Origin: Escherichia phage Eeyore
Sequence record: PP925821.1
DNA length: 45,057 nt
Strand: one strand, 5' to 3'
The notes under the pieces are model-generated. The model was not told the origin of the DNA. It ran no database searches and saw nothing but the letters and a program-made list of their open reading frames with translations. The position numbers and the translations under genes were made by a program. This document shows positions 12,299 to 14,484 of the stretch, piece after piece. Numbering within the stretch: the first letter of the stretch is position 1; every line of letters begins with the position of its first letter.

Positions 12299-13153
12299 AT
12301 GAGCACTAAATTAACGGGTTACGTTTGGGACGCTTGTGCCGCTTCTGGCATGAAGCTGTCCAGCGTTGCCATCATGGCGCGTCTGGCTGACTTCAGCAGT
12401 GATGAAGGGGTTAGCTGGCCTTCCATTGCTACCATCGCGCGCCAGATTGGTGCTGGTGAGAGCACGGTTCGCACAGCCATATCACAGCTGGAAAAAGACG
12501 GTTGGTTAACCCGCCAGCAGCGCCGTAAAGGCAACCGAAATGCATCGAACGTTTACCAGCTCAATGTTGCGAAATTGCAGGCTGCTGCCTTTTCTCACCT
12601 GTCAGATTCTGACGCATCAAAATCTGATGCCTCAAAAACCGACGCGTCAATATCTGAGGCATCAAAAAACGATGAGAAAGGCGGTTTTCACCCGTCAGAA
12701 TCTGGGGGGGATCCGTCAGTAAATACAACTACTGATCCATCAGTTAAAAAACCTTCTTGTCCGGTTGCGCCGCAACCAGACCCTGAAGTGACGATCACCG
12801 ATAACGCCATCCTGGTTCTGAATCATTTGAACCTGGTTAGCGGCTCACGATACCAAAAATCAAAAACTTCTCTGGAAAACATCCGTGCTCGTTTGCGTGA
12901 AGGTTACACCGTTGGCGACTTACAGCTGGTGATTGACCTTAAGCATGAGCACTGGAATGGCAATGACGTGCAGTACCAGTACATGCGCCCTGAAACGCTA
13001 TTTGGCCCGAAAAAGTTTGAGGGTTATCTGCAAAGCGGGATCCGTTGGGACAAGAAGGGGCGTCCACCGCGCGAAAGCTGGGGTGAAAAGAAACACGATC
13101 CGATGAAGTTCGGTCCGGTTGATACCAAGATTCCAGAGGGGTTCAGAGGATGA
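12299..13153 (+). CDS. Replication initiator (lambda O-like) with internal ori iterons
   Basis: 284 aa; N-terminal winged-helix (SIATIARQIGAGESTVRTAISQLEKDGWL), Ser/Asp-rich linker encoded by the iterons, conserved C-terminal domain; SD AAGGA. Confidence 0.7.
   Translation: MSTKLTGYVWDACAASGMKLSSVAIMARLADFSSDEGVSWPSIATIARQIGAGESTVRTAISQLEKDGWLTRQQRRKGNRNASNVYQLNVAKLQAAAFSHLSDSDASKSDASKTDASISEASKNDEKGGFHPSESGGDPSVNTTTDPSVKKPSCPVAPQPDPEVTITDNAILVLNHLNLVSGSRYQKSKTSLENIRARLREGYTVGDLQLVIDLKHEHWNGNDVQYQYMRPETLFGPKKFEGYLQSGIRWDKKGRPPRESWGEKKHDPMKFGPVDTKIPEGFRG
12608..12669. repeat. Putative replication origin iterons (4 direct repeats of ~15 bp)
   Basis: tctgacgcatcaaaa / tctgatgcctcaaaaa / ccgacgcgtcaata / tctgaggcatcaaaaaa inside the O-like gene, followed by an AT-richer stretch, as in lambda ori. 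Confidence 0.55.
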
Positions 13154-14484
13154 ATGAAAATAAATACTGCCGCGCGCTGGCTGAACTGCGTTCAAGACCA
13201 GCCCACGAGTTGAAAGAGGTCGGCGATCAATGGCGCACTCCGGATCTGTTGTTTTGGGGTATCAATGCGATGTTCGGCCCTCTGGTGTTGGACCTTTTTG
13301 CCGACGACAGCAACGCGAAGTGCCCAGCATGGTATACGGCTGAAGATAATGCCCTGACGCAGGATTGGTCAGAGCGTCTGGCAGAACTCGGTGGTGCCGG
13401 GTTTGGCAACCCGCCTTACAGCCGCTCTCAGTACCACGACAAGCAGGCCGTCACCGGAATGACCCACATCATTAACCACGCTATGGCAATGCGAGAAAAG
13501 GGTGGTCGGTACGTTTTTCTCATTAAGTCTGCGACGAGTGAAACGTGGTGGCCGGAAGAGGCAGATCACGTCACATTCATCCGTGGCCGAATTGGTTTCG
13601 ATCTTCCTACATGGTTCGTGCCGAAAGACGAAAAGCAGCAGCCCACCAGCGCATTTTTTGCTGGCGCTATCGTGGTCTTCGACAAAACATGGCGGGGTGA
13701 GCGTTTCAGTTACATCAACCGTACCGACCTGGAGGCCAAAGGCCGTGCTTCGATGTTGCTGGCCCAGTTTGCAGTGGGAAGAACGCAAACTGATGCGGCG
13801 CCGGAGCTTGATGCTGAGGTAGTGCCGGAGAAATTAGAGGCAGAACTGCCATTAACCCAAAAAGCCATTCTGGAAACCAGTGGTGTTGAGGCTTGGGCCT
13901 GTGTTGTCGCGGCGTTCGGCGAGAAAGATGAGTACACCTTCAGCGAGTCAAAGTTTGGTCATACCTGGGCTGCCGACTCTTTGGAAGACCCTGAATTTAC
14001 CAATGTTTCACCGCTGACGATCGACAGAGCGAAAAAGCTGATCAGCGAGAGCATCCTGGTGGGTGTTAATGCATGGCTGGAAACATTGCGCTTTGATAGC
14101 GATGACGTGAAACAAGACATATCAGAGCGGTTACGCACGGTTGCCGTTGAGTCTGCGAAAGAATACGGCATTAACCACAGTGAATTCATCGCGACCATGG
14201 AAAGCCTGGATAAAGCCAAATGGTCAAATATTCGGGGGATCCGCGCCCATGTCCGTGAGACGCAGGAATCAAAGGACAAGGCGTTAAACGAATCGCGCGT
14301 TTGGCCTCTTGAGGTTGGACTGGTGTTTAACCAGATTGAAGGGGCTGACGCTCTACCTGTTTCACAGCAGAACAAGCTGAAAGCCAATATCAACCAGCTG
14401 TGGCTCGAACGTATGCCGACGAGTGAAATTATCACGACCGCTGGTGGTCTCTTCAACAGCATGCAGGGGGCCGTCAATGCGTGA
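13150..14484 (+). CDS. Phage Dam-family N6-adenine DNA methyltransferase with ~260-aa C-terminal extension
   Basis: 444 aa; WRTPDLLFWGINAMFGPLVLDLFA...GFGNPPYS (NPPY motif IV); start overlaps O stop (ATGA). Confidence 0.75.
   Translation: MNENKYCRALAELRSRPAHELKEVGDQWRTPDLLFWGINAMFGPLVLDLFADDSNAKCPAWYTAEDNALTQDWSERLAELGGAGFGNPPYSRSQYHDKQAVTGMTHIINHAMAMREKGGRYVFLIKSATSETWWPEEADHVTFIRGRIGFDLPTWFVPKDEKQQPTSAFFAGAIVVFDKTWRGERFSYINRTDLEAKGRASMLLAQFAVGRTQTDAAPELDAEVVPEKLEAELPLTQKAILETSGVEAWACVVAAFGEKDEYTFSESKFGHTWAADSLEDPEFTNVSPLTIDRAKKLISESILVGVNAWLETLRFDSDDVKQDISERLRTVAVESAKEYGINHSEFIATMESLDKAKWSNIRGIRAHVRETQESKDKALNESRVWPLEVGLVFNQIEGADALPVSQQNKLKANINQLWLERMPTSEIITTAGGLFNSMQGAVNA

Follow-up and report, generated by a model that had tools for sequence, protein, structure and literature searches.

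A lambda-type replication module without a helicase-loader gene in Escherichia phage Eeyore, and the DnaT-like tail of its initiator

Escherichia phage Eeyore (sequence record PP925821.1; the whole stretch of 45,057 nucleotides that was analysed is called the window here) carries a lambda-style replication initiator gene that contains a putative origin of replication and is followed by a methylase gene where lambda has the gene for its helicase loader. The initiator, a protein of 284 amino acids (aa) encoded at 12299..13153 on the + strand, ends in a short peptide that is also the end of E. coli DnaT, and among lambdoid phages this peptide co-varies with the kind of loader gene found downstream. 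On balance, we favour the reading that this is a loader-less, or 'initiator-only', lambda-type module, which would recruit the DnaB-DnaC of the host through the tail as a docking peptide. Lambda is the textbook example of a phage initiator that requires a phage-encoded loader, P, to capture the host helicase. Among the temperate phages and prophages of enterobacteria, a large group possesses a lambda-style origin and initiator and no loader (Flotzy, LLS, SfII, mEp460 and SPN1S, as well as the K-12 remnant CPS-53), and comparative evidence suggests that the loading system of an initiator is chosen by a small C-terminal tail that can be exchanged. Reading the tail in this way would aid the annotation of phage replication modules and the prediction of host dependence, and the hypothesis opens the recruitment of DnaB-DnaC by DnaT during replication restart to direct test. 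Should the tail prove irrelevant, what remains is an unremarkable, previously sequenced representative of a class of lambdoid modules; the sequence of the module is in the databases already and its kind is known, and what is described here is a proposed variant of the mechanism. A preliminary description of the same DNA is partly supported by the present analysis, being right on the origin and on the missing loader, wrong on an extension of the methylase, and silent on the tail.

The initiator gene and the putative origin within it

From its N terminus onwards, the initiator consists of a winged helix assigned by Pfam to HTH_36 (aa 23-70, 1.5e-9), a linker encoded by repeats, the Phg_2220_C domain (PF09524; aa 173-245, 7.7e-23) and the DnaT-like tail. 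PHROG profiles describe it as 'primosomal protein' (6e-77), 'replication initiation protein' (4e-69) and, over aa 1-163, 'replication initiation O-like' (7e-49). It is 99.3% identical to the 'O family protein' of phage LLS, and the O proteins of Stx phages align with aa 25-94 at 41% identity. BLASTP reveals no similarity to lambda O itself (E>=1). Pfam finds neither Phage_rep_O (PF04492), which lambda O, Gifsy-2 O and phiES15 O do match, nor the single-stranded-DNA-binding domain of DnaT (PF17948), which DnaT, SPN1S gp46 and phiV10 p43 do match, and the DnaD_N winged helix (PF21984) stays under its 27-bit cut-off with 24.6 bits (E=2.9e-5). The ~165 N-terminal residues, together with the repeats, are 75-78% identical to the 'O' of SfII, SfIV, 720R4 and 716R3, proteins whose C-domain is a clear homologue of that of lambda O (SfII O against lambda O, E=1.3e-25). 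Judged from these alignments, the initiator is a mosaic with a crossover directly after the origin, and its N-terminal domain and iterons travel as one module.

Phg_2220_C (12815..13033, + strand) is a small all-helical domain at the position that the P-binding domain takes in lambda O. It is very common (9466 representative clusters), and its predicted fold is a small helical domain with a predicted local distance difference test score (pLDDT) of 97. PHROG profiles tie it weakly to 'DnaD-like helicase loader'. In a published HHpred analysis, lambda O itself is a combination of HTH_36 and PF09524, the latter with a probability of >95% (PMC5509034), which would make the pair of domains in Eeyore the same as that in lambda; an hhalign comparison of 57 Phg_2220_C sequences with a shallow, five-sequence profile of the lambda O C-domain was not significant (E=0.22). 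A relaxed Pfam scan of the 57 domains gave PF09524 and no other family, and searches of PDB sequences with the initiator, the methylase extension and the 57-sequence Phg_2220_C profile returned generic HTH regulators or noise only.

The repeats occupy the linker-coding part of the gene, between HTH_36 and Phg_2220_C. The preliminary description had placed four ~15-bp repeats here (12608..12669) and likened them to the iterons of the lambda origin; they are confirmed, and direct reading now extends them to an array of five abutting 15-bp units with the core TCAAAATCTGA (12600..12674, + strand), followed by a sixth, isolated iteron-like unit, CGTCAGAATCTGG (12693..12705, + strand). The five units are, in order, TGTCAGATTCTGACG (12600-12614), CATCAAAATCTGATG, CCTCAAAAACCGACG, CGTCAATATCTGAGG and CATCAAAAAACGATG, which ends at 12674, and all follow the imperfectly palindromic pattern CRTCA-N5-TGAYG, whose A-rich centre reads AAATC, AAAAC, ATATC or AAAAA. 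TRF reports an array of period 15 at 12608-12667 (4.0 copies, 73% matches) and, as an alternative, a period of 30 with 84% matches, and the repeat search finds four in-register copies at 12601-12674. The sixth unit forms an inverted repeat with unit 1 (I1, in which 12603-12622 pairs with 12685-12704 at 85% complementarity) and keeps the same offset in nearly all homologues. With at most one mismatch, the core occurs only at 12602-12657 in the whole window. With two mismatches it occurs 19 times, against 13.3 +/- 3.4 expected by chance, which is not above chance, so that the significance lies in the clustering and not in the word. The core is kept at 4-8 copies in SfII, 720R4, 716R3, YeP1, phiNP and 80 contigs from IMG/VR.

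Translated, the units give a peptide repeat, DASKS/DASKT/DASIS/EASKN, and it was necessary to consider that they are nothing but a slippage-prone coding repeat in a flexible linker, the true origin lying elsewhere or replication being started by recombination. The period is exactly five codons, (D-A-S-K-S)n is typical of low-complexity linkers, and the copy number changes in steps of five residues, the initiator homologues in databases being 274, 279, 284 and 289 aa long. We nevertheless regard this explanation as very improbable in the light of the synonymous sites. Among 43 non-redundant homologous genes (<97% nucleotide identity), aligned by codon, synonymous-codon diversity per conserved residue falls from 0.478 in codons 1-98 to 0.110 in codons 99-161 (Mann-Whitney p=1.8e-12) and climbs again past codon 161; 58% of codons 99-161 show one single codon in all 43 sequences. 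Within the units, the S-K-S-D codons are frozen (TCA AAA TCT GAY), while the spacer codon between the palindromes varies freely, including its amino acid (A/P/T/G). The constraint, furthermore, does not stop with the repeats and takes in ~100 bp of the non-repetitive sequence that follows them, each unit is a palindrome of DNA, and both design and position agree with the mapped origins of lambda, 933W and phi80. From the low synonymous diversity and its extension past the repeats, we place the putative origin at about 12593-12781, a stretch of ~190 bp that corresponds to codons 99-161. At the level of sequence, the array and its flank thus behave as a DNA element rather than a mere coding repeat, and the dyad-symmetric A-tract design, the conservation at varying copy number and the strong synonymous constraint support the proposal that the repeats are lambda-like origin iterons.

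Downstream of the iterons, the constrained stretch includes a conserved segment (12710..12760) in which two GATC sites (12710-12713 and 12734-12737) each precede a CCRTCAG half-site; GTTAAAAAACC comes next, and the constraint also takes in an A-rich stretch. Codons 137-141 (GGG GAT CCG TCA GTA) are unchanged in 42-43 of the 43 sequences and codons 146-148 (GAT CCA TCA) in 35-41 of them. The segment is weakly AT-rich, with a GC fraction of 0.42-0.43 in 60-bp windows (the minimum beside the iterons is 0.38-0.43), and is a candidate for an unwinding or Dam-sensitive part of the origin.

Analogous iterons lie inside the initiator genes of lambda, 933W, phi80, phiV10, mEp460 and Gifsy-2; the first three are annotated origins, and the repeats of the last three were found in this analysis. 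Among these initiators, the iteron sequence switches together with the N-terminal domain. The resemblance to the ori-O-P region of lambda concerns the layout: an origin in the part of the initiator gene that encodes the interdomain linker, dyad-symmetric A-tract iterons (ATCCCTCAAAACGAGGGA, four times, in lambda; CRTCAAAATCTGAYG, five to six times, in Eeyore), an initiator in which a winged helix binds DNA and a C-terminal domain serves recruitment, and a gene order of cI, cro, cII-like gene and initiator. Eeyore differs from lambda in that its iterons abut at 15 bp without spacers, where lambda has a period of 20-24 bp, in an N-domain of the HTH_36 and not the Phage_rep_O family, with no BLASTP similarity to O, and in having neither a P gene nor a marked AT-rich block; its initiator, moreover, has a DnaT-type tail and not the lambda ending ...TDWIYGVDL.

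The missing loader gene and the DnaT-like tail

That no homologue of DnaC, P or DnaB is evident had been proposed in the preliminary description, and the proposal is borne out. Pfam and PHROG detect no helicase, DnaC/IstB, P (PF06992) or primase family in any plausible open reading frame (ORF) of the early region and its flanks. Lambda P, E. coli DnaC and DnaT find no match by tblastn in the six frames of the window (lambda P, E>=1), and the Walker A pattern [AG]x4GK[ST] occurs, among ORFs of at least 80 aa in the window, in the terminase at 23728 only. No loader gene is found in the isolated phages Flotzy (from its annotation), LLS and SfII. In each of 80 related contigs, the initiator is followed by methylase genes and then by RusA, a LexA-like gene, an antirepressor or DUF968, with a helicase or loader in none of the 80 loci.

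The gene that follows the Eeyore initiator, at the place of a P-type loader, encodes a Dam-family N6-adenine methyltransferase of 444 aa (13150..14484, + strand; Pfam Dam PF05869, aa 19-199), as had been recognized before, and is translationally coupled to the initiator through an ATGA overlap at 13150-13153. The C-terminal extension of this protein, earlier put at 260 aa and suggested as a possible means of helicase loading, is instead about 225-245 aa long and composite: a core of aa 1-219 (13150-13806) is followed by a rare insertion, aa 220-380 (13807-14289), and by a conserved module of 64 aa, aa 381-444 (14290-14481). The 64-aa module (WPLEVGLVFNQ...LWLERMPTSEIIT...; phrog_16025, predicted helical) keeps 86% identity while the linker or insertion before it varies. 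The 160-aa insertion is rare in databases, and the methylases of LLS and phiNP (295 and 293 aa) consist of the core and the 64-aa module only. LLS, whose initiator is nearly identical and whose iterons are the same, grows on E. coli K-12 without the insertion. In SfII and YeP1, where the origin-binding module is again the same, both the insertion and the 64-aa module are missing, the complete Dam of SfII being 217 aa long. The predicted structure of the extension is helical (pLDDT 73), with nothing loader-like among its structural matches. These comparisons speak against the suggested role in loading; the methylase is not part of helicase loading and at most acts on the two conserved GATC sites of the origin.

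In this phage group a DNA adenine methylase always stands directly or one gene after the initiator (loci L005-L008 and L009-L088), and the families that fill the slot are unrelated: PF05869, D12 (PF02086) or, in L088, an 805-aa fusion of C5 and D12. The constancy of an adenine methylase, together with the two synonymously invariant GATC sites, suggests a methylation-sensitive function of the origin, as is known for oriC and P1 oriR.

A feature that had been overlooked is the end of the initiator, the DnaT-like tail ...GEKKHDPMKFGPVDTKIPEGFRG-stop (13094..13150, + strand), which we propose as a docking peptide for host DnaB-DnaC or the primosome. The Eeyore initiator ends in ...VDTKIPEGFRG (PVDTKIPEGFRG) and E. 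coli DnaT in ...PDSQIPPGFRG (RDVNTVSEPDSQIPPGFRG, SEPDSQIPPGFRG), with D-x-x-I-P-x-G-F-R-G-COOH in common; some Phg_2220_C representatives (P0291) agree with DnaT in 14 of the 19 tail residues. Over DnaT and many lambdoid initiators the consensus is ...[RC]-[DQ]-V-N-x-[VI]-S-x-P-D-x-x-I-P-x-G-F-R-G-COOH. It was followed in a phage collection by tblastn with the DnaT tail and in IMG/VR by a DNA-pattern scan, and it ends the initiators of Rac (YdaU), Gifsy-1/2, SPN3UB, the Stx phages POCJ13 and 75/02, mEp460, SPN1S and further phages, of which several already have an initiator annotated as 'primosomal protein I'. At least five unrelated types of C-terminal domain bear it, namely the DnaT domain, the lambda-O-C type, Phg_2220_C, the 'IANGYQGLF' type and the POCJ13 type. 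In SfII, whose O ends in ...VDYSQIPAGFRG, the match of E. coli DnaT by tblastn is limited to the last nine codons of the O gene.

The tail goes with the type of loader. A DnaT-type tail is found where a DnaC-like gene comes next (Rac, POCJ13, Gifsy-2 and SPN3UB, and E. coli itself, where dnaT lies directly upstream of dnaC) and where no loader comes next (SPN1S, BUCT711, mEp460, HannyBb, SfII and the group of Eeyore), and initiators followed by a P-type loader (lambda, 933W, phi80, phiES15, phiV10 and ST512phi13.3) end in ...TDWIYGVDL or ...WNSPEAWEDFL. In a survey of IMG/VR for the pattern D-x-x-IPxGFRG-stop at the end of ORFs of at least 150 aa, the first 120 matches listed included 109 tail-bearing ORFs, which were followed by a DnaC-like gene in 55 cases, by nothing loader-like in 48 and by a P-like gene in none, six not being judgeable. 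Conversely, the tail is present in none of 82 initiators upstream of P-type loaders, and all 76 lambda-P loci have the lambda tail. The same C-domain, furthermore, can occur with opposite tails and loaders: SPN1S (DnaT-type tail, no loader) against phiV10 (...WNSPEAWEDFL, P-like loader), Gifsy-2 and Rac (DnaT-type tail, DnaC-like loader) against phiES15 (P-type tail, P), and SfII and mEp460 (DnaT-type tail, no loader) against lambda.

Two Rac-like initiators (loci L134 and L135) are identical, with the same length of 325 aa and the same tail, and one has and the other lacks ydaV (DnaC-like) and ydaW. The phage copy of the DnaC-like gene thus seems dispensable, as expected if host DnaC can serve. 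The codons for F-R-G-stop also hold the ribosome-binding site of the next gene, dnaC in E. coli and the methylase in Eeyore; in the loader-less Rac-like loci, where the next gene begins 41 nt downstream, this cannot apply, so that conservation of the tail is not merely that of a ribosome-binding site.

Two observations on the genus Uetakevirus may be added. SPN1S gp46 (L095) and phiV10 p43 (L100) have the DnaT-like domain in common and differ in both tail and next gene, which switch together. Over residues 86-179 of E. coli DnaT, SPN1S gp46 (1748-2563 of L095) reaches 63% identity (E=4e-40), which is far closer than an old relationship predicts and suggests a recent exchange between the dnaT-dnaC operon and a phage module, in either direction.

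Recruitment of the host helicase

The mechanism that we favour would run as follows. Dimers of the N-terminal winged helix would bind the iterons and distort the origin; the Phg_2220_C domain and the DnaT-like tail would then dock host DnaB-DnaC, or another part of a DnaC-dependent primosome, and host DnaC would load host DnaB in place of the P of lambda. The preliminary description had left two routes for helicase recruitment, direct or through the methylase extension. The second falls with the comparisons given above, and the first, since the DnaT-type tail co-varies with DnaC-type loaders, is better stated as probable recruitment of host DnaB-DnaC via the tail. A wider proposal can be offered more tentatively and may quite possibly not hold: the tail of DnaT and lambdoid initiators could be a portable docking peptide for DnaC-type loading, by which carriers without a loader gene would connect to host DnaB-DnaC; it would also be the element, long sought, that hands over from DnaT to DnaB-DnaC in restart, and ...W-N-S-P-E-A-W-E-D-F-L and ...T-D-W-I-Y-G-V-D-L would be the matching peptides for P-type loaders.

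Known systems resemble the proposed one in part. DnaT and DnaC of E. coli share with it the tail and, if our reading is right, the setting of DnaC-dependent DnaB loading; DnaT differs in having no sequence-specific DNA-binding domain and no origin, and, as PF17948 is absent from the Eeyore initiator, the tail alone is common. Rac (YdaU-YdaV), Gifsy-1/2, SPN3UB and POCJ13 have the DnaT-type tail and, in Gifsy-2, iterons inside the initiator gene, yet they bring their own DnaC-like loader directly downstream, which Eeyore does not. In the iteron plasmids pSC101, R6K, RK2, F and P1, a single winged-helix Rep protein acts on direct repeats and the host supplies both helicase and loader; their origins use DnaA and DnaA boxes, of which none lies near that of Eeyore, and we know of no plasmid Rep protein for which a DnaT-like tail has been reported.

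Other ways of bringing in the helicase have to be weighed against tail-mediated docking of DnaB-DnaC. Direct contacts with DnaB are reported for some plasmid initiators, and Phg_2220_C, as a helical domain of DnaD/G39P-like kind, might by itself bind host DnaB and deliver it without DnaC, leaving the tail no role in loading. We consider this unlikely. The similarities in question are weak, neither the PDB profile search nor the Pfam scan of the 57 members brought up anything beyond PF09524 itself, and E. coli DnaB normally requires DnaC for loading. SfII, moreover, is equally loader-less and joins the same origin-binding module to a C-domain of lambda-O type, so that Phg_2220_C cannot be the common solution; the common element is the tail. 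We are somewhat more doubtful still of DnaT mimicry in a stricter sense, in which the tail would dock PriA or PriB, a PriA-type primosome would form at the opened origin, and DnaB-DnaC would arrive by the restart route. The established partners of DnaT, with which the tail is shared, are indeed PriA and PriB (PMC13377028), and both the annotation 'primosomal protein I' and the closeness of SPN1S gp46 to DnaT fit such a route. However, structures put the PriA and PriB contacts in the C-terminal domain and acidic linker of DnaT and describe no role for the tail, the Eeyore initiator has no DnaT domain by Pfam, and the tail stands immediately before a DnaC-like gene in 55 of the 103 informative cases among the matches listed, which points to the loader side. 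That the methylase extension (aa 220-444) is the missing loader or an adaptor, as its location at the position of lambda P, its coupling to the initiator and its lack of an assigned function might suggest, can scarcely be entertained, the comparative data having largely refuted it already.

Docking of DnaB-DnaC by the tail, which we continue to prefer, also has a number of points to contend with. The likeness of the initiator tail to DnaT is confined to the last ~10 residues, of which seven are identical, and the tail alone reaches E=0.14 in BLASTP. The counts of covariation come from related phage genomes that are not independent of each other, those from IMG/VR from the first 120 matches listed, and covariation names no partner: this could be DnaC, DnaB, PriA, PriB or another protein of the DnaC-dependent pathway. 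In the literature, no function is given for DnaT residues 154-179 (PMC4132743; PMC13377028), the way in which DnaT recruits DnaB/DnaC is described as unknown, still so in 2026 (PMC13377028; PMC4132743), and a structure paper of 2026 prefers DnaT's N-terminal domain, and not the tail, as a possible contact for DnaB/DnaC. Finally, no strongly AT-rich unwinding element is evident beside the iterons, there being no A/T block like that of lambda, and no DnaA box came up in a search around the origin. A search of the literature, outside which Weigel & Seitz 2006 (Bacteriophage replication modules) fell, brought up nothing on these loader-less modules or on the tail, and no experimental work on modules of the SfII, CPS-53, LLS or Flotzy type was found in what could be searched.

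A gene of the leftward early operon may also have a part in helicase supply. It encodes a homologue of YfdR (7708..8247, - strand), an HD-domain 5'-deoxynucleotidase, with 66% identity to the K-12 protein over 177 aa. K-12 YfdR, a prophage protein, attaches to DnaA and has a moderate inhibitory effect on the contacts of DnaA with DnaB and with DiaA (PMC4776307). The Eeyore homologue may be an accessory that disturbs DnaA-DnaB contacts in the host, and it could release helicase from oriC for a phage that borrows DnaB-DnaC. At 7708-9638 (- strand), the window holds homologues of yfdP (61%), yfdQ (56%, DUF2303) and yfdR (66%) of the K-12 prophage CPS-53.

Relatives and neighbouring genes

The replication region of Eeyore (11000-16500) is 98.3% identical to that of the isolated Escherichia phage Flotzy, 92% identical, over part only, to that of LLS, and ~81% identical to that of Citrobacter phage phiNP. 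Flotzy and LLS have essentially the same module. Over the wider set of SfII/SfIV, CPS-53 (yfdO-yfdN-yfdM), LLS, Flotzy, phiNP and YeP1, the N-domain and the iteron core are the same (62-99% identity), with a GFRG tail, an adenine methylase just downstream and no loader gene; SfII, CPS-53 and 716R3 differ in that a C-domain of lambda-O type takes the place of Phg_2220_C and that a small PerC-like ORF precedes the methylase. In K-12 CPS-53, yfdO (6879-7247 of L305) is the C-terminal fragment of a lambda-O-type initiator that ends in ...DYSQIPAGFRG, and it is followed by the PerC-like yfdN (6388-6882) and a Dam fragment, yfdM (6113-6388); yfdO-yfdN-yfdM is a decayed copy of the loader-less module. 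The YfdN/PerC-like ORF was considered as a fused relative of the methylase extension and was rejected, BLASTP giving no similarity.

The rightward early operon begins after a cI-like repressor gene (10360-11055, - strand) and runs through a cro-like gene, a CII/CP76-like gene, a small YmfM/DUF4222 region, the initiator, the Dam-family methylase, a C5 methylase, an antirepressor and a DUF968 protein to Q. Directly upstream of the initiator, a YmfM-like ORF (11909/11963-12289; phrog_1170, 3.7e-17; annotated in Flotzy, LLS and SfII) and a DUF4222 ORF (12130-12309; Pfam 2.7e-18) overlap by ~160 nt in different frames; either one of the two families derives from a wrong frame or both genes are genuine.

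In circular permutation, the window represents the genome of a temperate lambdoid phage of Enterobacteriaceae. A tail-fibre gene at its right end (43619-44905) appears to run on at its left end (1-2768), so that the permutation is probably one of the whole phage genome. These two parts resemble an invertible tail-fibre segment, in which opposed tail-fibre C-terminal and chaperone modules (1-687, + strand; 684-1337 and 1346-2083, - strand) adjoin a gene for a Hin-like serine invertase (2214-2768; Resolvase and HTH_7). Between the tail fibres and the integrase sit a DinI-family gene (2811-3293, - strand), whose longest ORF has an N-terminal extension of 88 aa, and a UmuD-like gene (3413-3733, + strand), which is so named in the Flotzy annotation and has no Pfam match in the window; both may be SOS-modulating morons.

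An ORF of 269 aa (6050-6859, - strand) matches phrog_887, 'queuine tRNA-ribosyltransferase' (3e-94), with no Pfam match, and may be a DNA-modification (7-deazaguanine) gene; SPN3UB and IMG/VR cluster 14 have a gene of similar annotation next to their replication genes. Altogether, three genes for DNA methyltransferases are found in this one 45-kb phage: besides the Dam-family gene, that for a C5-cytosine methylase of 645 aa (14477-16414), which overlaps it by 8 nt, and that for an N6_N4_Mtase of 350 aa (20317-21369), which lies downstream of the Q gene and directly before the lysis genes.

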